A program made the translations under genes and the position numbers. Under the pieces are notes generated by a model. The model did not search any database, was not told the origin of the DNA, and was given only the letters and a program-made list of their open reading frames with translations. Shown here one piece after another: positions 11,702-64,000 of a DNA stretch of 64,000 nt. The DNA is from Amoebophrya sp. A120 (lineage: Eukaryota; Protista; Dinoflagellata). The stretch is from the NCBI GenBank assembly GCA_905178155.1, contig CAJINV010000004.1:6178828-6242827 (forward strand), given 5' to 3'. Positions within the stretch are counted from its first letter, which is position 1, and each line of letters starts with the position of its first letter.

Positions 11702-14700
11702 TTATAAACCAAAATCTGCATACAGCCGAAAACATATTTCGCCAGCTTCCCGCTGGCAGATCTCGTCGGGATCTATCCTTCCTGCCAGACCGAAAATGTT
11801 CCCGCTATGGTATGGAGTTGTTTGCTGAGTCACCAGAGAAGTGTTGTTGTTCGCAGTTCCTACTTGACGACCCAGGCCAAGCTGGAGGTCATTTCTTCGT
11901 GTGCTGCTGGGTGGAGAATCGTCTACTTCATCTCCCCGCTCATGATCTCCGGCGCTCAGCAAAGGTGATCCTGATGCTGTGCTCGTGGTCGACGACGTGT
12001 TCTCATCTGTATCCGACATCTTTAGATTGCGACTGCTCTCAAGTACTGTCACTAGACACGAATTGCTAGCGGTGGTTCTTTCAGCGGGCGTCATTCTGAT
12101 CTCCTTCATCCGCTCCGAGGGTCGCTGAAATTTTAGTAGGATCGGTGGAACAATTTCAGTGTTGTCCACTACATCAGGTTGCAGCGAAGCCGCATGTTGC
12201 GCATGTGCATGAAAATCACAAGTACAAAAAGTGCCGTATCTTTTTCGCGCAATCAAATCAATAAATTAAATAGCAGGAAAAGAACTACCGCATGACTATG
12301 CAATACCTGCAACGTTCGCACAATGTCATAGCCTCCGCCGGCGGCCGAACAGCCTAGTGTCGTCCCCCGTCTCGTTATTTTCCAGTTGCGAAACCAATCC
12401 ATGAATACCATTGCCTCGTCGCTGAAGCGCCGCACCGCAGACGTCCAAGCACCGGCCCCACCTGCTTGTAGTCCGGCAGCACATCGGTAGTGGCCCTGGC
12501 CTCCGAGCACGTGCCGGTCCATGACTGCTTCCAGACAGCTCGTGACCAACTCGTAGCTGGCTCTTCGCACCCGCGTTTTATGCATCGCAAAAGCATCCCA
12601 TCGCACTAGCAGTGATTGCATCACAAATTTGTTTGGCAAGAACAAAACTTGAATTTGTAATGCTGAGTCAGCTAGGTGTCGATGTTTGTCATGCATGACT
12701 GCAATTTGTACGAGGTCGATACTTTTGTAGTGGATAGGTTTCGCGGTTCAACAAATCGGCGGACCACATCAGCTGTTCGAGGACTTCCGATACTTTCTTC
12801 GTTTCCGGCGTGCAGAACTCTTGGATGATACTCTTGCACACGTCTAGGAAGGTCTCCCACACCACCGGACTGACGAAATCAGAGGAGTCATGGTACGTAG
12901 TAGGATTGCTACTTGTGAGATTCTCGTCCTGGTGAACTATGTTCTTGTTGTTACCGGTAGCTGCAATTGCAAACTGGTCACGGCGGCCATTAATCTTCTT
13001 CATCCGGTTCATCGACGCCCAAGCTGCAGTACTAGGACTCGTTGATGTTGCTGGGTTAGTACAAATCGGTCCAGGTTGCACTTGTTCCCTCGCACTACGG
13101 CGGTAGGGTCCTTCCTGGGTTGAAAATAAATCCATGCTCGGATCTTCAGTACTACTAGCACCCGTAATATCATGCGTTCTTCGTGTTGTACAGCTACTAG
13201 GGCCTTTCTTCCTCCTACCTCGCTGCAGATTCTCCTTTTTCAAATTTCGCAAAATTGTCTCCTCATCCTCTTCGTCCTCGGCGTAGGGCACGACTTTCTT
13301 CGCAAAACCGCCGTCCGCTGTGGCAATCCACTCGTTGTCGCAGGCAGCAGCAGCTGTACGACTTGCATCAGATGGATAGGGAAGTGCATCGAAATCCGCC
13401 CTGCTGGACGATGTTGATGATCCGGTGAGTGGCTGGGAGTTGCTCCTACCACGAGAGGTTAAAGAGAAACACGGCACAAGCGCAGTCGCCCCAAAAAGGT
13501 GCGTCAGCGGACGAACGTACGAGTCGTGTAAAACCTCGGCCATATTGTTTTTGCCAGCAATCCGCATTTTATCTAGGATGATGTTCACAATGTCGCTGCC
13601 ACCGAACGGAAGCCGCTTCGCCAGAAGGTCGTAAAGAATCTGTGTGTATTACTTCTTTTGTTTTGGATCTACTTTTGCGGTGCGGGATGTTGATGCGAGG
13701 GAGGCCAAGCACAATTGGCATGGATTCTGAGTCTGTAGGTTGCATCACACCTACTTCATCAACAGGTCAACAAGTTCAAACTTAAACTCATGCAGGATCG
13801 ACACCAATATAGTACTGGAGGCTGCAGGCCGAAACGTTGCAAGCAATTAGCAAATAGCTAAAAGTGAAACACAAACATCATTTACTGGTAAATTCCCCGG
13901 AATGGCGGCCACGATCTGCCGCCGCAGCCGCTCCAGTTCCTCCTCGTCTTCGTCGGGATAGAGAGAAAAGTCGAGCTGCAAGAGCCGCGTGGTCAGTGCC
14001 ATCCGCACGCCCCGCTGGCTATGGGGGTGTCAGGATCGGAATTGACAAAGTCGAAATAGTTTGTCATGCATAAAACGGATAAGTACCAGTTGGTGCCTAG
14101 ATTTCTTTTTCAAGTGGCGCATTACAAATTTGGGTAGAACCGACATCCAGTTTGTCATGCTGTTTGGGGAAGGTAGACGCCTTTTGTCATGCTACTTCAG
14201 CAGCTCTATTTGTACCCCTCAACAGGCTTTTTACAATCTGCCTCCCTTGCCTACTCTGCAAGACAGGCACTCTGTGGGCTGCATTTTATGCATCACAAAC
14301 TATTTCAACTTTGACGGTTTCAATCCTGACACTCCCATACTGCCCTTCCGTCGCGTAGTCGGCGAGCAGCAGCCCCGGTGTTTATGAAAGTGCACAACTA
14401 CTCCCCCTCGCACTCGTTTGTATTGCATGAACAGCAATACAAGCGTCAGCAAGAATACAGGTTTTGCATGACAAATTTGGACAGGAAGGTAGTCTTATTT
14501 GGGCTGCCAGAACTTGTCATGCAAACAGTGCCAAGAGGCAGAGGGTGAGTTTGGTATTTTGCATGACAAATGAGGGGGAGGGAGATGTGCGCTCTCATAG
14601 TGTTTCCTCCGGGTCCTGGAACGCCTGGAAAGGCAGGCCCATGGGCAAGGGCCGCGTCTCCGGCCATTTGCTCGACGCGTTCGTTACAGACAGCAAGGAG

Positions 14701-43209: not shown

Positions 43210-44444
43210 TCAATCCTTAAAAGGGACCGCCTCGGAGAGAACGCGGACGAATCTACTTCGCTCGCTACCAGATGCCCCCTGGGTCGTTCCTGCCCCGAGA
43301 CCATCTTCGGAGTTTTCACTTTCATCTTTGGAAAACTGGAGGTGGTTCAGGATGAAGGCCCAGAGAATTCCGGTCGTGCTCATGTAGGGCCAACGGTATT
43401 TCAACGGGATAAATTTGAAGTTGATCCACATCAGCGGAATCCACACGGCGCACGCGGCGGTGTTGTCCTGGACGAAGTTCTTTGTGTAATTTGCCCACGC
43501 ATTGTAAAGGACGGTGGTGACATTGCCATCTTTGTGGTCCTCTACTTCCTGCGCGGCGACCGCCTTGGGCTTGAGCGAGCTTTCTAACATCTCAGAAGCA
43601 GCAGCAGGGCTCGATGAGGATGATGACGTCCCGGCGGGCACGACCGTTGTTCCCCTACTTGAGGATGTACCCGTCGGTGTAGAAGGTTTTTCTGTGCTGC
43701 TGGGTAGAATGATTTCTTTCACCACGTAAAAGCAGGGGAAAAACAGCAACGGTGTCTGCACGACGCAATCGAAAATGCTCCCCGCTAGCGGATACACCTT
43801 GAAGAGCTGGGGCACGCGCGGGTAGATCACGTTGTAAACGCAATACCCCGGTCCTCCGGCGTACAAAGCGCCAAACAAACCGAAGGAAAACGACCTGCGG
43901 TAATCGACTACGGATGAAACCGCCCCGGGCTTGGCTACACTTGTGGTTCCGGCACTGGGATTTTTTTGGCTCGGAACCGCTGCTGTTGAAGCAGTGGCGC
44001 TGGTACTACTGCTGGAAGTTGTACTTCTAGACGCTGGTCTATCAAATGCAAATATGTCTGGGTCCGGATGAGTGCAGGAGTTTGTCATGCACATTTTGCA
44101 TGACCCATGACGCCCCTGGTGCATGCTCGAGCATCACAGATTTTTTGACGGCTTCTCTCGATGCCTATCCTGCATGAGAAATGCGTTCCTCGCGTAGCAA
44201 CGACTGGAGTGCTGGTCCTCTTGCTCTTTATGCAATACAAATTTCTTTCGAATCCAAAGGCAGCATCACAAGTTGCAACCTTCCAGACATCCAGGGATAT
44301 TTGCAATGCATATGGTGGTCCATATTGCTGCGCGATCGCGTCGCAGACCACGTACCGGGTGCCGTTGGTTAAAGCGGCCGTGGCGATGGGAAAAAAGTGC
44401 GCTCGAAAGGAAGACGACGCAGCACCAGCCGAAGATGATGCCAT
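43210..44444 (-). CDS. Mpv17/PMP22 family membrane protein, 318 aa
   Basis: CDAIAQ, DYRRSFSFGLFG, FDCVVQTP, AVWIPLMWINFKFIPLKYR; one introner; spliced length 957 nt. Confidence 0.9.
44040..44312. mobile_element. Introner family A (273 bp)
   Basis: TSD TGGTC/TGGTG. Confidence 0.93.
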
Positions 44445-45329
44445 GTTAACAAACCTAATTGGAAAGACAAAGAAATCAGGTGGGGGCTGCGCTTAGGTTA
44501 ATAAATACGATCGGTGGAGGTTCGTCGACTGGTGACTGAAATGGGACATGATCAAGGCAGTGCGGGTCGTGCTGGTAGTTAAAAAGAAATGTTGAAGCAG
44601 GAAGGTTAGTTGTCTGTAGGGTCAGAGGATGTATTTTACCAGTGGGGGTGGGACTGTGCTTATCCTAATTCGTTGATTTTTCTTTCCGTCGCGCAATGTA
44701 CAAAACGGGCTACAATAAGACTTTTTGATTCCGGTACAACAGCTAAAGTTGCGTTTCGGCTGTACATGACACCTCCTTACAACCCAACTCCTTTCATCAC
44801 GAAGTTTTACCCTCTCTGGAATACACGTCGATACCCCTCATGATGCACCACGAGGAACACACGCCTCGCAAACTCCTACAGCTGCGGGCTAGTCAATGGT
44901 GCAACGAAAAGAGTATTGCCTTTGCAAAGGACTAGAACGGCTCAAGCGACAATTTGATCATGTTACACTGTTGGAAGTTCATCTATGCCAGTCTACGATG
45001 TGATGGAGAATGCTGTGTAATGGTGTTCTGTACGCCGGCCCAAGATCTCTGCAAAAATATGTTTTACGAAAAGTAGAGATCTTCATACTATCCAGATACT
45101 GAACACGAAAAGAACAGCAAAACATCCATAGAAGACGAGGACACAATAGCGTCTCTTCATCTTATGATGGTTCCACCCGAAAACGACAAAATTGCAAAAG
45201 CTTCTCATGCGAATGCGTGTCGTGTTGTTGAAGGAAGATATGCTCGAAGGTAGAGCAGCGATCAACTTATGCAAAACAAAAAGTTCGCTGAGCCTGAGGT
45301 CGCCGTCGCGCCATGCACAATATCACGAC

Positions 45330-48300
45330 CTACTCAACCACTACTGGCCCTTCACCACTACCCTCCTCGGTGCCGCTATTCTCCTGGTTATCGTCTTTTG
45401 TCTCCAACTCACCTTGACCAGAAATGATGAGTTCCGCCTCCTTTTGGTATTGTTTCAGCTTTGCCCGCATGGTGTCGAACTGCGCGTGTTGTGCGTATGG
45501 GGTTCTCAAACGTTACATCCTCAACTGTTACATGATTTGTCATGCAAAATTGCCATAAGCCGCCACACGATCAAGGTGTTTCGCATGACAAATTCTCGAA
45601 GGGCGAAACAGCGCCTGAATCTGTTCCGCATTTGTAATGCAAAGCGCGCAATCTTCCCGCGCTCATTTTTGCTGTTCTTGCATCACAAATTCATGTAACA
45701 GTTGAGAATGTAACGTTTCAAAGCCCCATAGTGCGTGGAACTCGGTTTCGTAACCGACGTCCTTCAAGTAATCGACGGACGGATACCCTTTAGCTTCCGC
45801 GCTGTGCGTGGTGGTGTTCATGACGTAGCCGTTCTGAAAAGTCGCCATGATTTTGTAAAAGAGCTCCCAGTGCTGCTTCGTTAACTCGGTGATGCGGGAC
45901 TGCCAAGAGTTCGAGGAAAGAGTTCTTGCTGCTGTCTTCATGGTCTCCTTGGTTGATGTTCGTTCCGTAGTAGTAGCTCTCGTGGTCTGTGCCAAGGTTA
46001 CAAAGTCTTCGTCGGTCGTGTCAGTCGATTTCGATTTATTTCTCGTGTCGTGCCTTTTATGCCACGATACCGCGAAGTCCACCAGCTTTCCTTCCGTCTC
46101 CCGCTGGTACGCCGCGACGTAGCTGCGGATGTCGGAAAACCTGGGGTGAGCGTGAGTCGTGGGGTACAGTATTTACAGACTTCGGGAAGAAGACAGCACT
46201 TGCTCATCACGCCGTCTGGGGAAGCCGAGCCGTATTCTTTCGTAGTCAAAGTCAATGACATTTTGAGATGAAATTGAAGTTCCAAAACAGCTCACAGAAA
46301 TTATCAATACCTGAGGTCCATCCAATTCCCAATCGCGTTCGCGGCCCACCACAGACTGTTATGCTCCACGGCCCACCCGCTCCCCGACCGCAGCTCTATC
46401 GGCGCATAGTCGGTGCTGTTGTGCAGAAACAGTGGCACGAACACCGAGGCAGAGGCGCGCGCCGGGGCGTACCAGAGGGTCACCTTGTTCGACGCCGGCG
46501 GTGTAGACGAAGCACCAGCTCGTGTAGTTCTACCTTTATTTGAATCTGCTTCATCCGTCACTGCCGTGACCTCCGCGACGTGGGTCATGGTGGTGCGGTA
46601 GATGTCGATAGATCGTTCCCAGGCACCGTATTTGAACGTTGCCTCATTCGCACCCTCGGCGTACCGCATCGGGTTCCCATAGCCTCCGGCGGCCACGTTC
46701 TGGGTCAAGTCAAAGGGCGTGTTTTCGTAGTGGTCCCGGTAAAAGCCAAACACGTCCTCCCGCGTCAACGGCCGGGATACGGGCACGGAGAAGGGGTAGG
46801 TAGGCTTCTCGGTTTGGTAGCCCAGCATGGGGTCGAGCCCAAGCTCTGGGTTCGCGTGCGAAAGCATCCGCCACGCGCGTCGGGCGGAGGGAGTATCGTT
46901 ACGAAATGTTTGTCATGACATAGACATCAAGCAGCTAAAAATGAAAAAATGCACACCAGCGTCTTGGTAGAGGCATATAATTACCGTGGCTACTTCTTTC
47001 ATTGGTTCACTCTACTACTAGACAATCTTTGCAGCAAGAGCTACGATGTGTGTCTTGGTCAACAAAGATTTGTTCCTGTCGATACTAGTAGGGGTGCGCG
47101 TACTCACCGGCCGAGTAGATTTTCGTGAAATCGAACTTCTCACCGGAAGCAGGATCGTACCTAGGATTTTCATTTTTGACAAACCGCTTTAGTAATCTTG
47201 TTTCAACATCAGAAGAGCAACTTCGTCGATGTGGAACTACAAGTAAACCCCGACCCTGGTGCAGTTTCTGTTGTTCATTTTTCCCTTGTATTCATATGTC
47301 TCCAGAACGCGACGGAGAGGACTGAAGCGTTATTAACCACGTGGACTACATCTGCAACACTTACTAGAAAAATGAAATAGCCGGTCGTATGATTTATGAT
47401 ACCACCCGTGCTTCTGGGCTACGGAGACCAGGTTTTTCGAGAAGAGGAAGGTCTATCAAATGCAAATATCTCTGGGTCTGTAAACTTCTGATGCAAGTCA
47501 GGGAACACTGCGCACCCTGTAATTCACTGCCAAGCATGACAAGTTTTTCCGTGGTTCTGAATTGCGTATTCCGCATCAAAAACTTCGTTTTTACATGACA
47601 GGCAAGAGGAGTTTTTGTGGCCGCGCACGACAGAGCTCATAGTAATGCCAGATTAGCACGACAAGTCTCACAATCTTCCAGACCCAGACATATTTGCAAT
47701 GGTTAAGGTCTCGGTATCCTCCAGGTTCATTTCCCTTATGACAAACATGTTGGCCACCACGGCGAAGTGGTTGGGCTGCAGCTTTTGCGCGGCCCACACC
47801 GCCCCCTTGCCGGTATCGTCCGCCAGGATGTGGAAGACCCACGTTTCCCTCCCGTCCGTGATGGTGAGCGCCTCCCCGCTGTCATCCACCTCCAGTGTGG
47901 AAAAAAACCCGTACTTTTCCGCCAGGCGACCGCCGTGCAGCACCGCACATCTCGCCGTGGTGCACCGCTCCAGCATCAGACGGGAGATCTTATGCGTTGC
48001 AAAAGAAGTACCGTAGTAGTGGGAACTTCTGCATCAGAAATTTTATTTTCAGAAGGAACATGATCACCAAAATCTGTCATGGGGAATTAGGTACAAAAAC
48101 CAGAGCTGCCACGCTGTACTGCAACTAGTACGAGTACGATACTTTTGCGAAGGATAGATTTCTTGGATTGACAGCAACGCGTGGCCTTTTCCGCTGGGAT
48201 CGTTCTTCGGGAGTGCGTACAGCCGGGCCGAGCATGTGGCTTCCGCAATCCCCAGGTAGTCGCTCAATGACATCCGGTGAGGAAATGTAGTACCCAGTTC

Positions 48301-49492
48301 TGCTGACTTATTTTTGCCAGGCAAATAACCTGCCTCCCCGCCAGAATGTGTCTTGTCATGCGGCTCGACATAGAACCTGTCATGCATGAGTCTGAAAGCG
48401 TCTGAAGGTTTTTTGCACTATGGGCAGCAGCCCCTGGGTACTACGTTTTTTCACTTCGGGTAATCAACGCGTAGCTGCCGTCGTAGTATGGAAACGTGAA
48501 CTCGTGATCTGTGGTCACTCGAATTTTTGTTTCCCCGGTTTTACTTTGTGACGGCGCGACATCGAAAAAGTTCTCCTCGTCCGCTTCAAACTCTGGGATG
48601 AAGCCGAGCGGCTCCGTATGGGGTTCTCAAACGTTACATTCTCAACTGTTACAACATGAATCTGTAATGCAAGAATGGCAAAAGTGAAACGGGGGACCTT
48701 GCGCGTCTTACATGACAGATTTGGCACAGATTATCAGCCTGCTTGGGCCTCTGAGACTTTGTCACGCGAAGCAGCTTGATATGGTGCCGATTCTGAAGGT
48801 AATACTGCATGACAAATCGGGTAACAGTTGAGAATGTAACGTTTGAAAACGCCATACTCCGTGGGCCGGTCGTCGGGGTGGAAAGGGCCATACTCGGGCG
48901 AGATGGTTGTCGGCGCCACCAGGCGCGGCGTGCCCTCCAACGGGTAGAAAAGCGGGCGGCTTGGCTGCGCAGTGCGGTTTCGGGCCGGCACGAAAATGAC
49001 CCGGTAATCCTCGTCACCCTCGCCATCGGAGGTCTGCGAAACCAGCGCGCCAACGCCCTCCGCAGTGGCGTTTGGGCCCATCCCGAGGCACGTGCAGTGG
49101 TCGCGCGGACGGCGGGGCAGTTTGCTTCTTTGCTGGTGGTGGGCATCATGGCTTGTTTCCTGTTCAGCAGGAAGTGCACTAACCTGTAGGCCTGAGGGAC
49201 GTGGACCTGCCGGGGGTTTCCTCGAGCCTCCTGCGCCCATTTGTTTGTTTTCGCCGTGGACTGCAGACTTTTCCGCATCCTTGTCTATTCCCCCAGTTTG
49301 ATCTTTCTGTTGGGAGAGGACGACATTGAATTTCGTACTCGTTTTCGTCCCGCCGACGGCCGCCAGCAGCGGTTGGCGGCTCGGTTCGTGTGCCGCTGCG
49401 GACCGGATGAAAGCGAACAGCGACACCAGGACCAGCACCAGGTACGACGAGCCGGGAGTAAAGTTGTAAAGTTGGGGCTCCTGCACGGGCAT
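45330..49492 (-). CDS. Peptidase family C69 (secernin/dipeptidase-like Ntn hydrolase) with signal peptide, ~814 aa
   Basis: HCTCLGMG nucleophile region, SQTSDG, LGIAEATC, MLERCTTARCAV, GEALTITDGRETWVFHI, VWAAQK, VANMFVIR, YYSARRAWR, YRDHYENT, ERSI; 6 introners plus GT-AG introns 46141-46310 and 47161-47402; spliced length 2445 nt. Confidence 0.92.
45496..45730. mobile_element. Introner family H (235 bp)
   Basis: TSD GTGCG. Confidence 0.95.
46894..47084. mobile_element. Degenerate introner (191 bp)
   Basis: TATCG...CGATA ends with weak TIR and eroded TSD; removal +5 nt restores HPYYSARRAWR. Confidence 0.75.
47454..47705. mobile_element. Introner family A (252 bp)
   Basis: TSD AGGTC. Confidence 0.93.
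47991..48156. mobile_element. Introner family B (166 bp)
   Basis: TSD GATCT/GATTT. Confidence 0.9.
48271..48462. mobile_element. Degenerate introner (192 bp)
   Basis: TIR core GTGA..AAAYGTAGTACCCAG; flanks AATGA/ATCAA; removal restores YALMSDYLGIAE. Confidence 0.8.
48617..48856. mobile_element. Introner family H (240 bp)
   Basis: TSD CTCCG; orientation opposite to 45496-45730. Confidence 0.95.
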
Positions 49493-49690
49493 TGTCGAAG
49501 ATGCGATAGAAGTTACTCACACATCCAAGAACTTCTGCCGGAGAAAGTGGAAGTATTGGACCCCCTGTTGTAGCTTTCCGCCCTGGACAACGGTACCGTT
49601 TAGTGCACTTTGTACGTAGGTGGTCGTAAGTGGCCCGCGTGGTAAGTTCTTGCTTTTTTGTCCGCAACAGCACGCCAGGTCCTTTGGCTC

Positions 49691-50385
49691 TGATGATGAT
49701 GTAAATCTATTCGAGGTAGTCCCCTTAGATTATCCTCTTCCGTCCTCTAAGTCTCATGATTGCTTGGATTGGTAGTCTTTCGTTGTTGTTGTTTGCTTGA
49801 AAGGAGAGCGCTGAAGATGTATTGCTGCTGCTTGTTGTTTTTGCTGATGCTGTTGCTGCGCCTGTGGTGATGTCTCGCCATAGATTTCGATCAAGGCAGT
49901 CCTTTACTGTTGCTCGCTTTCGATTGAGATCCGCGTTGATTTCTGCTATCCAGGTCTTTGTTGCTCCTTGCCCTTTTTTCGTCTTGGCGTTCGGCACGGT
50001 GGCTGACAACATCAGCCGCGCCCAGCGTTTCGCTGGATACCTTACCACGCGGCCAAAGTATCGCAGCCTTCGCTCTCTAATTTTCTCAGAAAGCGCCCGG
50101 GCCTGCAGCTTGTTGTAGATGTCTCGCGTTTTGACGTGGTCGCGTTTTGTTATTCCTAGACAGTGGCGGAGCTTCTTATTCCACCACGTGTCTAACAAGA
50201 TTTCGCCACTTTGTCGCAGACACCACGTCTCGCACCCCCATGCGAGCACGGGGTATACGAAGGCGCAGAGGATTTTCAACTTGAGCCGCGGCGTGAGTAT
50301 TTTACCGTTGAAGACGTTGGAAAGCTCCCCGGTTTTCTTTTGTGCTAGCAGGATTCTCGTCTCGATGTTTGGCTCTACTTTGTTT
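49691..50385 (-). mobile_element. 5'-truncated non-LTR retrotransposon (RTE-like), RT C-terminal region
   Basis: KLKILCAFVYPVLAWGCETW...LRHCLGI...IRERRLRYFGRVVR...KTW pattern; (CAT)n 3' tail at 49691-49701. Confidence 0.85.
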
Positions 50386-51444
50386 CTTCTGTTTGGCGTT
50401 CTAGTTCTTCGCGGACATTCATCATTTCCGCTGCAGGGAGCCCCGCACGAAATCTCTCTACTCGGCTGCACTCCTCTCACTCACTGCTGCGTCGCTTATT
50501 CTGGCCAAGGCCACTCGCACTCGATCCATCCTATCATTTGCAGAGAACCATCCACCTCACTACACTTAAAGCCCGCCTCCGAAAACAGGCACGCTCTGAC
50601 TCCTCCATTTGAGAGGATGAAGAGTGCCAGAAGGCAAAGTTGTTCTCAATCTAAATCTATTTTATGACTTAAAATATGCACGCTCTCCCCTTATTTTAGC
50701 AGAGATAGGTGGCTGTGGGTACTAAATTTGCCAGCGCCCATCTCCCACGAACACGATCCTAACCAGACCAAAAACTCACTACGGGACCGCCGTGCCATGC
50801 TATTTTTATTTTTTCTGTGGCGCATTTCTATGTGTATGAAAAAGGCGTCAGCAAGGTGATACTTTCAAAGCCCACGCGAGCGGGCTACGCAAGCGGAGCG
50901 GGGGCACATCGTGCCCAGCGATGCAAGATTCACGGAAGGCGTAATTAGGAGCGGAAGCACGCCCGCGTGGTGTGCTGAAATTAATTTTTCGTGCGCCTTT
51001 ATTGCGTACAATACACCAGTGCTCTGAGACTGGGGGGGTCTGATCTATGTGCATCTTTGAACTCGTCTTTGAAAACAGTTTCTTCCGCAAGACGATCCTT
51101 GATGTGGTGTTTGAAATATTACTTCTCGTGCACTACAAAACATGTGGATTATGATGGTTGTGCTAATTTGCGAAAATGAGATGCAAAAAAAAACATGTAA
51201 AAATCTGAAAGCGTGCGAAAAAATTAACACAAAAGCGCGGGTGAAAAAATCAGGTAAAAAATTGAAAAAGCGAAACAAAGGTGCAATAAGACGTGTATGA
51301 AAATCGAAAAAGCAGACTGCTCTGAAAGAAAACAGGCTGTTCTGAGATGCTTGAAAGTCCACTGTATTTTTTGCTTCAGGGCATCTGTGTACTTAGTCTA
51401 TTCACTTTATAATTAACTTTGTTTTGTTTGATAGAACTGTAGAT

Positions 51445-54400
51445 TTACTCGTTCGCTTCGTTGGCAGTGTCGGCCTCGGGCGCCGGTGCGCTTTCCTCAA
51501 CACCACCTCCTTGGCTTTTCCTACCGCCTTCGCGGCTCGTGCGGGAAACTTTTTGACCATCTTCCCCGGGAGGAGCAGATCCAGATTTCGCACGGCTGGC
51601 GCGGCTGGCCTGATTCTTGCTCCCCTCCTGTCTTGCCGCTTGGTTCACTGCGGATTTCTTGGAAGGTTGTCCACGCGCTGCCTTTTCGCCTTTCGCGGGC
51701 GCGGCCGAGTCCGCATCAGCTGCCGTGGCACCACTACCGAATAAACACGGGCAACAGGAGGCGGGGGGCGGTGGCGACGGCTGTTGTTTATCCTGTTGTT
51801 CCGCAGGAAACAACCCACTTTTTTGCTTCGCAAGGGACTGGTTGACGTTGGAGAGGGATTTCGACAGGCTTTTCTTTGGCACCAGTTTCGCTACCGACTT
51901 CATCACTTCCGCAGGCGCCGGCGCCTCTTCCCCGGCCGCTTGTTTTCCCTCCCCAGCAGCCTCGTTCACTATTCCACCGTCTTCGTCCACCACCGGCAGC
52001 TTTGGCGTGTTCTTTTTCTTCTTCGGTGGCAGCATCGCGCTCGTGAAGTTTAAGCCGGTTTCCACGCGCTCGACCTCCCCCACGTGCAGGTCCAGCGTCA
52101 TGGTGTGCACCGCCAGGTCCAGCGAGAGCTGCTTCTGCGCCCGTTTGTTGATCGCGCCGGCCCGCGCGAACCCCTTCCACAGCACACTCACCGACTCGAC
52201 ATGATCACCTTCATTGTCGCTCTTTTGCCCCCGGTGGATCAACTGGGAAAAGAGTTCGTAGTCCTCACCCTCAAGGCCCATCTCCTCGAGGTCATGTTTA
52301 CTCAAGCTGTTGACAAAGTTCATAATTTGCTCGTCGGTGGGCTCCGTGTCCTGGACCCCCTCCAGGCCTTCCTGGAGCTTGGTGGCCAGCTTCTTGGCGG
52401 CCACGGGCGTGAACCCGTGCGCCACGAGCGCGTGCTCGGTGTGCCCGAAAGAGAACCGCAGGTGCTCCCCGGTGAGCAGGAGCTCCTTGACCCCCTCCTC
52501 GCCGTACTTCTGGACCGCGAGGTTGTGCAGGAACCCACGCATGCGCCCGACCTGCTCGAACCCGCCCTCGAAGTCCAGTCCCAGCTGCGTCATCACCTCC
52601 AGGTCCTTGTTTAACGACGGCCTCGCAAGGTCCTCGTTGTTGCTCACGCTGGGTCTGCTCACCTGCGCCGCCAGCTTCTTGGCGTACATGGGCGACAGTC
52701 CGGCCGACAAAAACGCCGCCTCGGCGTCCCCAAAGGACAGGATAAACGCCTATCCTGAGTAAAAACGTCCCCACGACCCCAGGGTTGTCATGCAGATCTG
52801 CAAGCGCAAGAGCGTTTGTAATGCGCATCCCCATGAGAGGCATTATCCATTTTGTTTGGGAACTTGTAAAGCTGTAAACAGCATAAGGAGATGGCTTTGC
52901 TATGCGGCTTCTCTTGCGAAACTGCACTACACTACACCCTGCAATTTGTCATGCGTGGTTCCCAAAACTTCAAGGTTTGTGTTGCAAAATCCCCATCTTG
53001 ACTCTGGGCGGGTGGGGACATTTTACAAATGATAACACCGGGTCCGTGTTCAGTTCCAGATCCGCTTGTTCTACTTCCGGCGAGGCCGGCGCCAGCACCT
53101 TTGCAGCCTCCGCTGCCGTGCAGCAGAGAAACAACACAATTCCGAGGATCAGGAGCAAGGCGGCGCAAATGCCGCCGCCAATCGCCAGCGGCGCCGCCAG
53201 CCCGCCACCGGCTTTTATGGAGTAGAGAAAAAAGTGTTTTTTAACAGTTGTTTACAACTACGTACACATCGCGTTCTTGCCGAACCCGCAACAGAGATGC
53301 GCTGTTCTTTGAAGTGCGAGATATTAAGCCTGTAGTGCTCAATGAAGTTTGTAAAATTGAATTTTGTAAAAAAATGCAGCTTCCCGTTTCTTCCCTTATG
53401 ATCCCCGAATAATCTCATCTATTCTTACATCAGGCGTTTCTTGTCATGCAGACCAAACCTGGGCTGCTGGATTATCTCTTGCACTTGCGAAAATGTGCAG
53501 TATTAACTGTGACACTTTTTTTCTTGGATAGCTTCGACCGCTTCCTCAGTAGCGTTAGTGGTAGACTCGTTGGTTCCCCCGCCACCGAAGATCACCTCCT
53601 CCACTTTCGAGTGATATCAAATGCAAAAATGTCTGGGTCTGGATCTGGAAACTTGTGATGCTAAAATGTGCATGATGAAAACACTTCCGAATGCAGTCCG
53701 GCATGACAACTTCCCAAAACGCTTTGTTCTCATAGGCAATCCGCATGAGAAACTGCGTTTTTGCATGACAAAAGAGGCTGCGACTTTTGTTGGTTATGCA
53801 ATACAGATTTTCTAGGTATGGAAAGCTAGCATTACAAGTTCCCACCTTCCAGACCCAGACACTTTTACAATCCATAAGTGACCCCCGGTAGCGATGTGCG
53901 TCTCGGTAGTGGCATTGGTGCAACACGTTGCCTCGCAGTCGGTCACGTCCGGCAACGAGAACAAATTATTCGTCACATTTAAATCGCCCACAGCCCGACA
54001 GAGTTGGCTGCTGTCACCAGTGACATTGTAGCCTGGGGCACTGCATGCCCCGCCGAGAACTTCACACGTGGGGAGGCACGCTTTCCAGTCCATACGAATG
54101 TCCATTAGAACGTAGCCGGGTTCAGTACAGAGCGCACAGTCTTGCTGACCATCCTCGTGGCACGTCGCGGAGTCAGCTGGGTTTGTCGTACCATGCTGGC
54201 ATTCGCAGACCTTCGCCGCACGAACGCAGCTTCGCGCACTGGGGGCGCCGGGGACGTCCTCGTCCGAGAGATTGTAGCCGGGCTCAGTACATTCGTAGCA
54301 GTCTTGCTGACCATCCTCGTAGCACGTCTGGGAGCCAGCCGGATTCTTCGTACCATGATCGCATTCGCAGACCGGCGGCGGGCGGCACTGTTTCGCATCG

Positions 54401-57400
54401 GGGGCATCGGGGACGGGCCTTTCAACGGAGTCGGTCTCAGTACAGAAATCACAGTCTTGCTGGCCATTTTGGTAGCACGTAGCTGTGGAGAGGACCGCCT
54501 TCATCGTACCACCGTCGCACCTGCAGGTCGGCGTGCCCGTGTCCTCCGGAAGGCACTGTTGCGCACCTGCGACGTGCTCGATAGGCGCTAGTTCGAAGCC
54601 GGCCGTGGTGCATTCGGCACAGTCTTGCTGACCATTTAGGTAGCACGTATCTGTGGTGGCAGCCGCCTTCTTGTTACCATGTTCGCACTCGCAATGTTCA
54701 GGCGCAGTCGCAGTCTCGTCTGCGCACCCTGCCACCTGAAGTTCAGCACCTGACTGGCTGCAGTAGAATTCTGCATCGCCGCTTCCCGCGCAGCTTGCTG
54801 ACCCGATATCGACGGGCATTGAAATCGCACTTTTACCTGGCATCATCCGAGAATCACTCAGCCAGGTTTTCCAGTTACCCGCGGAAAAAGAAATCGTTAC
54901 CCTGTTGTAAGATTTTATTGTCAATTTAGCCTTCGTTCATTCATTTTGCTAGGAAGAGGAAATGAAATGCTGATGATTTGACCGAGCTGAGCTCGGCACT
55001 GCTCGTGTTCCCTCCCTCCGCCGCAGCGCGGCTGGAATAAAGCAGTAGCCTGCCCTGATACCATAGCGAGAAGAACGCCACTGAGTGTGAGTGAGGCTAG
55101 GGCTTGTCGACATTCAAATTTGGAGCGCCAACACTCTCGGTCGTCGAACTCTACTTCATCGGTTCGGGGTTGGTCGGAGGTCGTCGTGCGGGTACAGAAA
55201 AGCAACATGTGTCTGTGTGGCCGCGCGGATCGATAGTACAAAGAAAAACTATGTGAAGCAAACTTCTTCGACAAAGGGTCGTCTGGTACTAAATAAATAT
55301 TGAAAATCGTAAAGAGCTGTACTTGTCGAAAAACCCGGAAGCGTCACTCGGCTTCTTGCATCCCTGCACGCAGCATGCTGTCTGACAGGCCTGAACAGTC
55401 TTATGGGTGTGTCAGGATCGAAATCGACAAAATCGAAAAACTTGTGATGCGTAAAATGTAGAGCACTGAAGGCCTGTATTGGGGAGCAAGCATATGAGGC
55501 CGATTGTAGGCCTGTTGAGGGGTGTGCAATGTGCTGCCAGAGTAGCATGACAGGAGCAGTCTTCTTTCCCCAAACAGCACGACAGACTGGATTTTGGTGC
55601 TCCCGAAATTTGTCATGCGCCACTGGAAAACTGCGGCACCGACTGACATCGATTTTGTGCATCACAAATTTTTCGATTTTGCCAATTTCGATTCTGACAC
55701 TCCCATAAATCTCCTCACCGTCGTATCCTGCCACTGACGCGCAATCCGTGTCGGCAGATACGGAGTCCTGGTAGATGTAGAAAGGCGTCTCCTGGGCGTC
55801 GCTTGATCCGGGCACATTACAATCCGCAGCAACACGGCTGCATTTCGGAACGTCGCAGCCGTCCATGAGAACCTCCGCGCCGGCTGCGGGGCAGTACCAT
55901 TTGGGCGTGCTAGACGAGTCCGAACTCGAGGTCCAGCCGTCGGCGCACTCCACTAGCTCGGTCCCGCTGGTCAGCTGCCACGTCTTCCTGTCCGAGCTTG
56001 CGACAGCGAGGCTGTTCTCGGGTTTCATGTCTTCCGAACGCAAAAGAGCCGCCCACTCCTCGTTGCTAGCGAGGAGCTCCGGAAGGTTTTTCGTTCGCTC
56101 CTGCATACTTGTAAAATCGGCATCTGCAGGCGGCTTGCAGCCTGTCGTACAACAGGCAGACTCGCATTCATCATCCGGGAAAGTGCTGCCGAAGGCAACG
56201 TCGTTGGACATATTTTCGTTACAGAAAACCTGCGAGCTGTCTGACGTCCGCACCAGGTACGCGCCCGTGCTGTCGGCCGTGGCTCTACATTGGGTCATCC
56301 CCTGACAGGTGGGCCAACAGACACTCACCGGCTCATCCTCGGTGCCAAGATTCCTCAATGCGTAACCGTGATCGCATTCTGCACAGTCCTGCTGCCCATC
56401 GGCCAGGCAGGTAGATGCGGTCGCAACGTTGCGCTTTTCTCCATTCGAACATTGGCAAACAAACTGGTTATCCTGGTCACCGATGACAACAGCATCGGTT
56501 GTTCCGCTCTTGATTTGGGCGCACACTGTGTAAGCACTGTGGACGGCGGCATTGTGTGGCGGCGCCCATTGCGTACGGTATATGTTCTCATCTGGCTTCA
56601 TGGTCGCGTCGCGTAGCCAGCAGCCTTCGGCCAGATCGGTCCCGTTTCCGCGCCCAGCAGACATGGCCTTGCACCAAGGTGTGATCCGACACCACGCCAT
56701 ACAAAGGAAGTAGCCCATCCCCGGTCCGTCGGGAAGATATTCCCACGTCCAGTCCTCCCCAGTTTTCGGCACGCCTGTGACCTTCTTCACCGTGGTGAAG
56801 TCACCGGTCTCCGCATCCTGGAGGGTAATCGCCGTCACCGTAACCGATACCTGTCCTGTTGTTGCATCCTGGTACACAATGCTCTCGGAGGCGTCCTGAT
56901 AAAGGCCTTGATTCACTTTTGCGTTACCGAACATGGAGCCTCCGTGTGGGGATTTGCCTCCCGCACTCGACGGCCAGTCCAGGAAAAGACCGAAGTCTCC
57001 TTCTTTGCAATCCTCGAAGACTTTTTCGTCCGCACTGTCGGTTAACACAGAACACGGAACACCCGACTCGATGTCGTCGCTGTTTGAGAATTTGTACCCT
57101 CCTTGTGCCAGGTCCTCGTGGCTGGTAGTACCGACGAAGTCGATTTCTGTCCACTCCCCTGAAAAGAGCCGGCACGCGGGACCCTTCGATTCCTTCGCAT
57201 GGTCTCCGAATTGGCCGTTTCCGTCAAAATCCCAGTTTCGGCCATTCGTGTACCAGGATCCGTCGACCGGGTCGACGGGGGTCGGCCCCGTATGACAGTG
57301 CACAACTCCCCCTCCCCCTCATTTGTCATGCCAAATGCCTAATTTACGCTTTGGCTCTCCCTCTCGGCACTGTTTGCATGACAAGTTCTGGTAGCCCAAA

Positions 57401-59070
57401 TAGCACTGCAATCCAGTTCAGATCTGTCATAGAAAGATAACATGTATTCTTGCTGACGCTTGTATTGCTGTTCATGCAATACGAATGAGGGGGAGGGGGA
57501 GTTGTGCACTTTCATACCCCGAAGCCTTGTTGTAGTACGTCCAGCCCGTACAAGTCACATCCGGCACGTGATTCTCAAGTGCATCGAGGGGCTCTGGTTT
57601 GATTTTATTGCCAGTGCGGCTTGAGAACTTGGGCCACGCGGCACACACGGCCGCACACTGTGCGGCGTTGACGAGGTTTGGCCCCTGCAGGGTGTTGGGC
57701 GGGCGGGCGTTGACCTCGGGCGGTACGGCTGCCGCACCGACGAGAGTGTAGTGCATTGTATCATCTCCGCCGAAATTTCGTTCCGGGGTCCAAACGTCAA
57801 AGTCTAAAATGACAGTCCCGTTCAGGAGCTTGTTGTGCCTGGCCTCCTCGTCACCGCAAATTGTCGTGTCAGAAACGACGGAGACTTCTAAGCCCTGTCC
57901 TGCCTCTTCCCGCTGTACAAGGGATGCCTGTGTCACCGAGCCGCTATGTAGCTCGTGGTGGCGCGAAGACGACAAAAGTCCCGCCTCTTCTACCACATGA
58001 GAAGATGAAGGACCACTTTCAACTGCGTCGGTGAGTTTCCGAGTGCTCTCGACTGTGGTCCCTTCCCGCCCGACAGCTGCTGTGTCGTGTGACGCTTTCT
58101 TCGTTGGCACTGGCAGCTGTTCTTCCGCAGTTGTTGTATCATCATGCAGTAAAAACTCGGTGTCGTCGTGTTGCTCTCTCGCCGACTTCGCACGGTTCAC
58201 AAGTGTAGTCAATCTAGTGCCCCTTGCTCTCCAGGGGCCAGTACGGGAGGGTGCAAAAGTTGCGAGAAAAGCGCTGCTGGCTCCGCGACGGGCCCCTTGT
58301 TGTTCCCGATTGCTGGGCCGCTTGTTCACCAACTCGCTGCTTTCTTGTGCCGCGGTGAATTCCTGTTCAAATTTTTCCTCTGCTGGTCGATCTTGCGAAC
58401 CGTCAGGACTCCTCTGCGACGTGCTTGTTGCGGACCCTACTGCATCATTGCTGGTTGTACCCGTCTTCGTGTTGACCGCGCGAGCTACGTAATTATGCAG
58501 CGAAAAAAAAGTCGTTGTGAGGGTGCGGGTGGAGCTCTTTTCTTTCACTTCTAATATTCTACTGCTTTTGACTGCTTGATCTTGGGGCACCAGCGTCAAG
58601 AACATGCTCATGCCGGGACAAGAATAACTTGTTCTTTCACAGTGCACAAGAAAGGCTCTAAAATTATTTGATGGAGAGAATGAATAAAATAGTTTCATGC
58701 ATGTTGTAGTACACATCCGTCCTGGATTCAACCAGCACAGTCTATCCATCCATGCTTACAGTGCTTTTGCACCTACAACATGACTAACACTAAATACGAC
58801 TTTTTATCTTCCATAAATGGTGCGCTTTGAACGCGGCGAGACCCCGCCGGGCTTTCGTACCACGGTGAAAGCAGCCACGTGGCCAAGCAATAAATTTGCC
58901 TCGAAAAAACCTGATGTGGCTGTCAACAGGAATACAGATACACTGCCCGCCTTACTAACATTTGCCGTTCTAGCAGGAGGCGCAGTGCCGGCGGTTGACA
59001 TCGTCATCGTCGGAGAAGCGATGATCATGCCTCCATCTCGCGGGCGGTTTGAAGGTGTTCTGGCCATCAT
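51445..59070 (-). CDS. Large Cys-rich type-I membrane protein with PAN/apple-like modules and Cys repeats (paralog 1)
   Basis: First exon ~58810-59070 (AFTVVRKP, matching the paralog); ORFs 57472-58749, 55249-57303, 53812-54924; TM exon 53035-53215; tail 51445-52750; 5 introners. Junctions near 54900-55320 and 58520-58810 unresolved. Confidence 0.8.
52751..53034. mobile_element. Introner family E (284 bp)
   Basis: TSD ACGCC/ACACC; orientation opposite to 10156-10438. Confidence 0.93.
53216..53530. mobile_element. Introner, family G-like ends (315 bp)
   Basis: TAT...AGAAAAAAGTGT TIR; TSD GCTTT/GCTTC; joins EEAVEA|GGGLAAP. Confidence 0.85.
53615..53876. mobile_element. Introner family A (262 bp)
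   Basis: TSD AGTGA. Confidence 0.95.
54105..54695 (-). repeat. Four tandem ~52-56 aa coding repeats CxCxxG...TCxxxGQQDCxxC
   Basis: Visible in ORF 53812-54924; a fifth copy lies at ~56370-56456. Confidence 0.9.
55402..55707. mobile_element. Introner family F (306 bp)
   Basis: TIR as in 14020-14339; TSD AGTCT/AATCT. Confidence 0.92.
57291..57516. mobile_element. Introner family C (226 bp)
   Basis: TSD CCCCG. Confidence 0.95.
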
Positions 59071-60458: not shown

Positions 60459-63400
60459 TCACTTCTTTTCTTTTTTCCCCGCCGTCTTGCGTTCCTTGTG
60501 TTTCTTCGGGGGGATGTGGGGCGTGAAGCCGGACTGCAGCTGCACTTGCTCGACTGGGCCATCCAGATCCATGCCCTTCCAGGTGCTCAGGTCGATGGAC
60601 ATCCGCTTCTTCTTCTCCGTGGGCGCCTTCGCTTGCACAAATGCGCTCCACATGTCCGCGTGCTCGGCCTCCCCGCTGATGTGATACAGTTGCCGGACCA
60701 GCTCCAGATCCGCCCCATCCAGTTCCAGCTCCGCAATGTCACTCTCGGAAAGCTGCACCCGCGGTGCCTGCATCTTCTATCCGACGGAAAAACTTCCTCG
60801 TCTCTCTTGTTCCCCACATCGCCAACACATATTAGTCACGGCATCTTCATCATCTTTGAGCTGATTGAACTCAAACAACATTTACATGGAGGTTGTGCAC
60901 ATGCTACATCGCGACTATCGTACACACCTCTAGCGTGTATTTGCATCGTAGCATCAGCAGGGTATCGTACGTTGCATGTCGTATGTTCAAACAAACAGAA
61001 TCAGAATCCAAAACGTCTTCATGACCATATCTCCGCTTGTTGCACAAACCGAACTGAGAGGAGGACAAGCGACACGCCAGAATCAGGTCGCTCTTCGTCC
61101 TTGCCTCCTCAAGCACACAGATTCATGACTATGTTCCCTGCATGATGATTCTATCTACTTAAAATCAATCTTAATTGCCCCTTCGAAGGAAGATGCTCTA
61201 GTTACACGGTGGGGAACCGAAGAGCCGGTGGCTTTCTAGCGGTGCGGTGGATAAGTTACGCGTCTTGGTCAGCGAGGACTGCTGAAACTCTTTCGAAGCG
61301 TTCCGGCGCAGGCGCGTGGCAATCTTTGCGGCCGCAGCGGCGGAGAAGCCCTTCGCCTGCAGGGCGCTCTCGGTCTCGCCGAACGAGACCATCTGCGGAG
61401 TGGTGGCGGTCAGGTGGGCGTCCACGTGGTCGTTCCCGTACTTGTCGCGCGCCAGGTTCTGGAGAAATTCCCGCATCCGGCCCACGCGCTCGGGGTCCCC
61501 AGCGAAGTCGAACCCAAACACCGACATGGCATACACGTCCGCCTCCGCCTCCGCCGGCGTCAGGTCGTCTTCGTCGTCGACGAGGGGGGAGCTCACCTGC
61601 TCCGCCAGCGTCTTAGCGTAGGCGGGGGTCAGACCCGCGGACAGAAAGGCCTTCTCCGCGTCGCCGAAGTCCATCAGAAACACGGCTTCCAGGTTCGGGT
61701 CCTCCGCCGGCTTCGACGCCTCCGATTCCTCGCCGGCCACCGCGGCCGCGGCGCCGCAGCAGCAGCACGCCAAAACCACGCCCAACGCGATCAATGCCAG
61801 CAGGGCCCCGAGGCCGCCAATCAGCGGGGCCGCCAGACCGCCGTCCGCGTCCTCCGTCGCTGCAGCGGAGGATGATCCATTGGTGCCGTTCGGCGGCGAC
61901 CCAGTGGAGTTCGTGCCGTGCTGCTCTCCGGAATTGTCGCTGTCGGGTTCCTTCAATTCCTTGCAGACCGTGAACGCGGAGTGCACCGCCGCACCCTTTT
62001 CCCAATCTCCTGGGTAGATGTTTTTTCGTCCGACCGCCGTGCGCATCCAGCAACCGTCCCACCAGATTTCCACGTCCTGAAACTGGCCCGAGTCATGTTT
62101 TGGTCCATGCCCCGCGGTCATGGCCTTGCACCAGGGCGTGATGCGGCACCACGCCATGCAGAGGAAGTAGCCCTTCCCCGGGCCTTTCTGCAGATATTCC
62201 CAATTCGCGCCGGGGGTCGGCACGTTCGCGAACTGGTTGTCGCCGTTCGCGTCGGTGGTCATTTCCACCTTTACCATTCCCTCTTGGAATACTCCCTCTT
62301 CGTTTTGGCAGCTCGGGTTTTTCGCGTCCTCTGGGTTTGTAGAATTGCTGCAGATGACCATGTTACCGTCTGCGGCAGCGTAGTAATTTCCCTGGTGTAC
62401 CTCGGGCGCCCCTTTCATAGCACCTCCGATCGGGCTTGCTCCGCCATGGTTAGCGGGCCAGTCCAGAAAAAACCCGAAGTCCTCCTCCTGGCATGTTGTA
62501 AAATCAAGGCTCTTGATCCCATCTGCCTCCCTCGGACACGGTGCGCCTGACTCGATCGGAACCGCTGCGTCGAACCCGAACTGTTCAGGGCTGTTACCAA
62601 AATCCACTACATGCAGTTGCAGCAGCCCGGAAAAGAGGCGGCAAGCGTTTCCGGCTGGCCGGTCGTATCCAGCGTTGTAGTAATTCGGGTTTGCGAACCC
62701 GGATTGAAGGTGTTTCTCGTCGTAGTTTTCGCCACGCCCGAAGAAAGTCCAGCCAGTGCAAACGACGTCTACGCTTGACGGCGCTTGACCTGTTTTTCCA
62801 GAAAACTTGGGCCAGGCGGCGCACACGGCCGCGCACTGCTCTGCGTCGCTCAAGGTGGGACTACCATCTTCTGGTGTCGCAGCTCCGACGAGATGGTGAG
62901 ACTGCCCATGCTCCCACGAGTTGTCTGCATTCCACACGTTAAAGTCAAGGATGATATCTCCTACGAGGGCGAGATTTCTGCCAGGATGTTGATCCTTGCT
63001 GCGCTTGCAGGCTGCTGTCGCGCTCGTACCAGTAAAGTCAGATACTTGAACGTCGTTGCTATTACCGTGCAAACCTAGCATAGTTGCGTAGCCCGCGGCG
63101 GTAAAGTTGAAGTTCGTCAAATCTGGGAACTGGTTCGTCGTCGATTTTTTCTGCTGTTGCCGTCCTTTTTCTTTTTCCAAACTAGCCGTTGCCTCTGCGG
63201 TTTCTTGCAGTAATGCGGAGGTCTCCGGACCAGCAGCACTACCCCACCCTTCACTGGTAGAATCTTCAATACGCGCCTGTCGATGAAGTTCTCCCCCAAC
63301 TACACGATCCGGTCGTGTACTCGCAAGAAGCTGAGCTTCACCAGCTTCCACGGCGGTCTTGACGACATCGCGAGCATCGCTCCGACCCGAATTATCTTCC

Positions 63401-63714
63401 TCGCCATTATTCCTCTTGTTACCAGTAGAAGCAGCCTTCCGTGCAAGTTTGTTTCTGTTGCCGCCCTTCATCGGGTGGTGCGTTGTCTGCGGGTGTTGCA
63501 CATCTGCCGGTCTGCGCACAACCGTGAATGCCGTCGTGTGGTGCAGCAACACAGGCGCGAAGATGGCGACAAAGGAGGAGCCGGAGAGTTGTAAGACCGG
63601 CGCCGAAAGACGAGAGGAAAACGCCGCAGGTTTTTTGTGTAGCGCTACGTTCGAGTTGCGGTTATCTTCCTGCGACATTTTTCTGCCACTTCTACCACCT
63701 GCTCCGCGCATCAT
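60459..63714 (-). CDS. Cys-rich type-I membrane protein, paralog 2 (~924 aa)
   Basis: Shares QCAAVCAAWPKFS, DFGxFLDWP, GYFLCMAWCRITPWCKAM, AAVHSA, GGLAAPL-TM and FGDAExAFLSAGL with paralog 1; last exon 60459-60773 matches the paralog-1 tail. Confidence 0.85.
60778..61253. mobile_element. Tentative highly decayed introner-derived intron (476 bp)
   Basis: TATCC...GGATA ends; removal +5 nt gives in-frame TRNMQAP; no in-phase GT donor found by eye. Confidence 0.45.
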
Positions 63715-64000
63715 GGTTTGATTGAAGAGGAGAGTTGTTGTTTAGTTTTGTTGTTGTTCGGTCCGGTGGATGAAAAATATTTAAGTGAGAGCGACACTAG
63801 TACTTCTCAAAAACACGACGAAGGCCAAAGGCCATCCTTGTATTCGAAAGTATCCTCGTATTTGTATGGAAAAGGGGGACAAGGCAAAACTTGAACTTCT
63901 GTGGGGCAGAATAATGATTTCGGTCTTTCAGGGTTTTATTGCCCTATGATCCCAAAACCACTTCGCCTGTATTTCTTTTGAAAATCGAAATTCGTAAAGC

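Follow-up and report, generated by a model that had tools for sequence, protein, structure and literature searches.

In the 64,000-nt stretch of Amoebophrya sp. A120 DNA analysed here (the window, to which all coordinates refer), the splice junction at an old introner, 46894..47084 on the minus strand, is confirmed: the intron consists of one nucleotide of the upstream flank, the element itself and four nucleotides of the downstream flank, a register written below as 1+4. We read this intron as an introner of the A120 type cut at 1+4; the rule is likely to extend to the whole class, and the cut is likely to be made by a modified, putative spliceosome using the terminal TAT and ATA of each element as its reference points. 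We assign this reading as a whole a probability of about 0.55. Non-canonical introns make up approximately 65% of the A120 total, and their borders and mechanism are left open in the consulted portions of the published description (PMC7789003). A single fixed register, if true, would reduce many apparent splice-site classes to one rule and make gene models re-annotatable. The cut phosphodiester bonds would then be known exactly, so that spliceosomal versus non-spliceosomal excision could be tested directly, and the cost-free invasion of exons by ~30,000 elements would be accounted for.

The junction at 46894

On the minus strand, the element stands in the context CCC TAC TA|G TATCG…CGATA CTCC|C TCC GCC, and the non-canonical intron GT…CC (46890..47085, 196 nt) is composed of G, the 191-nt TAT…ATA element and CTCC. 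In the upstream flank ACTAG (47085..47089), ACTA is exonic and G is intron position +1; in the downstream flank CTCCC (46889..46893), CTCC is intronic and the final C is exonic, and the exon after the intron begins with this C. The joint is unambiguous and its register unique: contig 2 of run X4, which we guess to be RNA, shows the joint 46889>47086 with 196 nt absent and 0 slidable letters, and 196 is exactly 1+191+4. The composition of one nucleotide, element and four nucleotides that had been proposed from the genomic letters thus agrees with the X4 joint. The cDNA check named in the original prediction gives the expected result as well, the spliced product at the contig junction being TACTACTCC.

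Among the six possible splits of the flanks, retention of four upstream nucleotides and one downstream nucleotide alone yields YAHPYYSARRAW, and retention of all five upstream nucleotides gives a TAG stop. Two adjacent tyrosines had been expected at this position from C69 homologs. The alignment bears this out, with YY in 11 of 24 non-self homologs, the A25 ortholog among them, and YS in 0/24. The site departs from a canonical U2-type GT-AG intron in its acceptor, which is CC and not AG; the donor is GT.

The register had been read from TSDs described as eroded, and this description holds in part. TSDs with one mismatch exist in the window, but the flanks at 46894 match at 0/5 positions, so there is no recognisable TSD and we infer erosion from the class of the element. 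The arms are complementary at 11/20 positions, and no close relative was found among 325 elements. When the terminal A is read as the first TSD base, ACTCC aligns with ACTAG at 3/5 positions; judging from these letters, this would be another possible history of the intron, with the cut coordinates unchanged.

Host gene and transcript evidence

The intron lies in the transcript-covered part of a C69 dipeptidase gene (45173..49353, minus strand; PF03577) with six introners and two GT-AG introns. The spliced model of 2463 nt contains one ORF of 767 amino acids, which is identical (0 differences) to residues 48-814 of the deposited Amoebophrya sp. A120 C69 peptidase (P0001). Since this identity extends across the junction, the deposited gene model already uses the 46894 junction; P0001 was possibly predicted from the same RNA, and so does not count as independent support. 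Four runs were compared with positions 43500-57500 of the window. Added together, the exons between the joints measure 2463 nt, the full size of X4 contig 2, with the intervening letters taken from the genome. The X4 contigs contain 19 joints, 15 of which were listed; among those listed, seven are at elements, two at GT-AG introns and six between element copies, and these six of 15 were discarded as repeats because each links different copies. The two canonical introns (46141..46310 and 47161..47402, both on the minus strand and both with an X4 joint) lack TIRs and start with GTAT. This start shares its bases at +2 to +4 with the N+TAT of the introners, an observation with n=2.

A joined contig could also be derived from DNA, either from an intron-less allele or retrocopy or from elements that are excised from DNA itself. 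The RNA status of X4 is a guess, and over 43500-57500 the raw RNA runs X8-X10 gave 65, 2 and 3 partial reads, which match element fragments only and span no host junction. However, the X4 contig lacks both GT-AG introns together with all six elements, shows no differing letters in the four pieces listed and matches the deposited protein. In addition, the share of genomic words is 0.84-0.87 in runs X5 and X6 versus 0.42-0.47 in runs X1-X4, as expected for unspliced versus spliced material. We consider a DNA origin of the joint very improbable.

The register at other elements

Removal of element+5 nt is found at 7/7 element joints listed in the X4 contigs, all on the minus strand. The old introner 48271..48462 (TAC…ATG, flanks TTGAT/TCATT) shows the joint 48265>48463 with 197 nt removed and 1 slidable letter, which permits 1+4 (TT-AT) or 0+5 only. 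This element had been cited as compatible with the rule; 1+4 is indeed allowed, but 0+5 is allowed equally. The introner 47991..48156, whose TSD copies differ at position 2, has the joint 47984>48156 (171 nt) and retains the upstream base in the RNA. Similarly, the introner 44040..44312 in the adjoining Mpv17/PMP22-family gene, with a mismatch at position 1, has the joint 44034>44313 (278 nt), and the upstream base is retained in X4. The introners 45496..45730, 47454..47705 (5' end TAA) and 48617..48856 have perfect TSDs and thereby slidable registers. The permitted number of upstream bases kept is 4 at 46894, 4-5 at 48271, 2-6 at 47991 and 1-5 at 44040, and it is unconstrained at the three perfect TSDs. 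These ranges intersect at 4, so 1+4 is the sole register common to all seven element joints listed, and the expectation that the rule would suit further elements is upheld at each of them.

Four more mismatched introners on the minus strand were compared by sequence. At 52751..53034, which has a mismatch at position 3 and a 1-nt offset between its arms, the upstream base gives VF; the paralog near 61695 has VF too, as had been anticipated, and the comparison supports retention of at least three upstream bases. The others are 53216..53530 (position 1, GAAGC/AAAGC), 55402..55707 (position 4, I versus T) and 12579..12736 (AAACC/AAACG), which has the sole position-5 mismatch together with a non-G donor and is the one site in the window at which the register of a non-G donor could be decided. 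No element joint at 52751, 53216 or 55402 is among the X4 joints listed. At 12579, ACC and ACG both encode Thr in the likelier frame, so proteins cannot discriminate between the two readings. Protein searches with the gene around 55402 returned one 90%-identical protein, which does not span the junction, and no longer one. Among 15 exons adjoining informative mismatches, Pfam found a single match above its cut-off, next to a synonymous site.

Alternatively, the position of the cut might vary inside an intact TSD, or 0+5 with a TA donor might be the register of young elements, 46894 having come to 1+4 only through a mutation to G that produced GT. Among the listed joints, the only one to exclude 0+5 is 46894, an old intron with a canonical GT donor on one contig of a run guessed to be RNA, and 48271 (TT) fits either register. 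The borders are called variable in PMC7789003, and the 3' flank at 46894 can be realigned to 3/5 identity. On the other hand, a one-base shift of the donor demands an equal shift of the acceptor onto CC, without a canonical signal, and a TA donor is absent from the predominant A120 motifs given in Table S4 of PMC7789003. This explanation appears unlikely to us. The 1+4 register as the general rule for these introners, hanging on one unambiguous junction, is quite probable.

Elements in the window and in a related assembly

The window contains 36 elements, 35 from the scan and one (53216-53530) found separately. They are 149-320 nt long and have no coding capacity, and most fall in families. 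The TSD is perfect in 26 and has one mismatch in eight, and 48271 and 46894 complete the set with 2/5 and 0/5 identity. When TAT…ATA pairs were required to have 14 or more of 20 arm positions paired and a perfect 5-bp repeat, the window gave 22, and each of five block shuffles gave 0. Under the 1+4 rule, the donors are GT in 12 elements, CT in 10, AT in 7 and TT in 7, which reproduces the census made originally; the counts assume that every element is read on the minus strand, where the coding model places 27 of 29 scored elements. The remaining two (9816 and 10156) have an open frame on either strand, and moving them to the plus strand changes the counts to GT14/CT9/AT6/TT7. The acceptor is AG in 2/36. 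The T at +2 in 36/36 is largely given by construction, because +2 is the first base of the TIR. Element 30945 (30940-31165) shows a different end structure, in which a copy of the upstream exon end replaces the 3' TIR end and a 12-nt direct repeat is present instead of a 5-bp TSD.

A larger sample was taken from a related assembly, where a TIR pattern scan gave 143 loci (L001-L143, 406 kb) with no long match to the window. Pairing with an arm library yielded 366 elements including 30 from the window, and a perfect 5-bp TSD is present in 278/366. In the loci, 288 elements have a TSD of at least 4/5 and usable flanks; 181 were oriented from sequence by the coding model. Among 73 confidently framed elements of the related assembly, the reading frame requires removal of element+5 (mod 3) in 66, and seven misfit.

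The original prediction held that the machinery ignores G+1 and the terminal AG, and the 152 related elements with perfect TSDs agree, since both occur at background frequency. G is found at TSD position 5 in 44/152 against a background of 30% (p=0.79), and AG at TSD positions 3-4 in 13/152 against 7% (p=0.43). These frequencies support a putative indifference to G+1 and AG, with a weak preference still possible. A bias to G at +5 was looked for in the related loci and is absent (32:34).

A requirement of the machinery for U at +2, which had been proposed from the loss of terminal bases at the opposite end, is not upheld. The 5' end has lost its terminal base in 2/181 elements and the 3' end in 3/181, and the counts pooled with the window are 2 versus 5 (p=0.45). 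The T at +2 is thus indistinguishable from the conserved first base of the TIR. Two related elements lack it: L002:1359 would have a GC donor in an open frame, and L141:301 would have AA, its coding support being weak. Over 14 positions compared in 181 elements, the 5' arm cannot be told from the 3' arm, and element families occur in both orientations (36:29, 19:9, 10:10 and 14:6). Because the arms are symmetric and either orientation is used, the splicing signals are most likely the symmetric ends themselves.

Two further patterns were rejected as evidence. A skew of TSD mismatches to positions 1-2 (8/11/3/2/6) disappears with a second finder (8/7/4/4/6, p=0.70). The excess of phase 0 at the 1+4 cut (78/49/48, p=0.007) was set aside as register evidence, target preference alone predicting 0.46/0.25/0.30. 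A codon-likelihood test of the exonic TSD copy did not discriminate at position 5 (sum 0.01, n=6). At L004:2123 and L046:3329, the flanks are apparently 3 nt longer (an 8-bp duplication; a TSD with three extra bases), and these 3 nt keep the frame if exactly element+5 is removed.

What the cut is measured from

The 3' site had been suggested to be placed by its distance from the TIR stem. The arm alignments show the inner stem shifted against the termini by 3 nt at 46894, 2 nt at 48271 and 1 nt at 52751. The offset of the cut is thus constant only relative to the terminal TAT/ATA, and any ruler would have to stand on these termini and not on the inner stem. The folding of the 46894 region is no better than that of shuffles (z = -0.36). 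Its predicted short terminal helix is lengthened by a pair between G+1 and the first trailing C. At the RNA-checked elements 44040, 47454, 47991 and 48271, the three terminal pairs have a predicted probability of 0.25 or less.

These data bear on a non-spliceosomal origin of the 1+4 register, a structure-guided cut-and-ligate reaction, as proposed for Euglena, in which a staggered cut would be made where the TIR hairpin ends. Such a reaction would be in line with boundaries that show no base preference on either side, with the symmetric arms and their free orientation, with U1 being undetected in A120 (PMC7789003) and with the fixed-spacer code N3CDG…CH'GN5-6|R of Euglena (PMC12501133). However, the terminal helix is often weak or owes its extension to chance pairs, and old introns whose inner stem is offset are nonetheless cut with precision. 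The offset also places T-A(-T) at +2 to +4, like the GTAT donors of this gene, the A120 spliceosome is nearly complete (PMC7789003) and the TIR-derived introns of Fritillaria are reported to be U2-spliced (PMC11282704; bioRxiv 2025.08.15.670264). We regard cut-and-ligate excision as rather unlikely.

The reading that we prefer is a cut at 1+4 by a modified, putative spliceosome. The spliceosome described for A120 is nearly complete, with U2, U4, U5 and U6, and U1 and snRNP27 are undetected in that description (PMC7789003). The inverted arms would bring both ends of the element together, and N-UAU would be read as a degenerate GUAU donor, perhaps via U6, as U1 and snRNP27 are undetected in Amoebophrya A120. 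The 3' cut would then be docked 4 nt beyond the terminal ATA, with the bases in between unread. In yeasts, loss of SNRNP27K accompanies a preference for U at +4 (PMC10581693), and a link between the absence of snRNP27 and N-UAU donors may be taken from this analogy as a lead. Since exactly one TSD length is removed at 1+4, any insertion would restore the original mRNA.

Insertion target and neighbouring features

The flanks of 299 locus sites, when symmetrised, show T at -13 in 300/598 half-sites (p ~1e-63) and G at -11 in 259/598, with no preference inside the TSD. In the window, T is found at -13 in 21/36. The two sides of the insertion show a negative association (odds ratio 0.33, p=3e-6); the target motif is therefore one-sided and reads approximately aaaTnGt at -16 to -10. 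The side on which it lies is unrelated to the orientation of the transcript, and unrelated to that of the element in 8/9 families. The motif suggests a candidate transposase that would insert ~10 bp from its recognised site. Combining this with the splice register, one could envisage a U1-free, putative spliceosomal code that cuts 1 nt and 4 nt out from TAT/ATA and reads no boundary base, under which insertions at any site and either way round would be perfect introns from birth, supplied by an enzyme inserting ~10 bp from a one-sided aaaTnG. We put this forward as a doubtful but conceivable scheme; if it were true, the two offsets together would equal the length of one target duplication exactly.

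Nearly all of the scored elements are on the minus strand, as are the longest ORFs, which is the arrangement of a unidirectional gene cluster. Pfam identifies CobW (26330-28045), exostosin GT47 (29638-31116) and Mpv17/PMP22 (43213-44133). The genes in 51445-58755 and 61198-63741 are paralogs; they are rich in cysteine, contain internal repeats, probably encode membrane-anchored proteins and have no Pfam match. An inverted-repeat pair of 271 nt without TAT/ATA ends is located at 6299-6569. Finally, a 299-nt X4 contig with a depth of 87 falls within 49696-50059 and has 17 differences over 49726-50024, which suggests another repeat family there.

Comparison with known systems

The elements combine TIRs, a TSD of constant length and a lack of coding capacity, as do MITEs and TIR DNA transposons. 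They belong to the A120 introners described by Farhat et al. (2021, PMC7789003), which have inverted repeats of TAT, 7 nt and AAA, direct repeats of 3-5 nt over the borders and 29,850 copies. Both sets come, by protein identity, from the same organism or a near-identical one and share the TAT/7 nt/A-run inverted repeats (weak at 46894, 11/20) and the non-canonical ends. The difference lies in the borders. The text of PMC7789003 reports dinucleotides without a clear signature and describes the borders as variable or unknown, whereas a fixed 1+4 cut is proposed here. In Table S4 of that paper, 9/9 predominant non-canonical motifs of A120 have N-T donors and 9/9 of A25 are TT-xx; the listed motifs may reflect an aligner preference for GT, CT or AT at slidable junctions. 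Singleton IEs are also listed, and a cognate autonomous transposase was not found in A120 by that study. The legend of Fig. S23 gives the IR as 'located at 1-5', and the description of the DR reads 'four nucleotides upstream'; both may already reflect the register, as may Figures 3 and S19-S23, where it could appear as a mode. No fixed register for Amoebophrya is stated in the portions consulted of PMC7789003, PMC12130899, PMC11282704, PMC12501133, PMC11453091, PMC9860276, PMC12621601, bioRxiv 2025.08.15.670264 and bioRxiv 2020.10.14.339549, nor was a later paper stating one found, with subscription journals outside the scope.

The nonconventional introns of Euglena (PMC12501133) likewise have paired terminal motifs and fixed asymmetric spacers without GT-AG. 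However, their motifs are CDG/CH'G with spacers of 3 and 5-6, and their exons start with a purine; the introners have TAT/ATA with spacers of 1 and 4 and, at 46894, an exon starting with C. An assignment of 46894 to the Euglena type was accordingly rejected, as G-TAT…ATA-CTCC|C fails the signature N3CDG…CH'GN5-6|R. The MITE-derived introns of Fritillaria borealis (PMC11282704; bioRxiv 2025.08.15.670264) share an origin from transposons with TIRs and TSDs, but they are cut by an adapted U2 spliceosome. Their splice sites are mostly AG-AC or AG-AT and are defined by sequence, whereas positions +1 and -2/-1 are free in Amoebophrya. The introners of Micromonas, Aureococcus, Symbiodinium and Polarella (PMC9860276; bioRxiv 2020.10.14.339549) are also non-autonomous TIR elements with net-zero change to the mRNA and splice sites inside the TSD. 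Micromonas-type introners require the TSD or the element to supply GT/GC/GA or AG, which limits their targets, whereas the TSD in Amoebophrya has no base bias. The fixed 1+4 offset is thus a real refinement of a known, mechanistically unsolved system.
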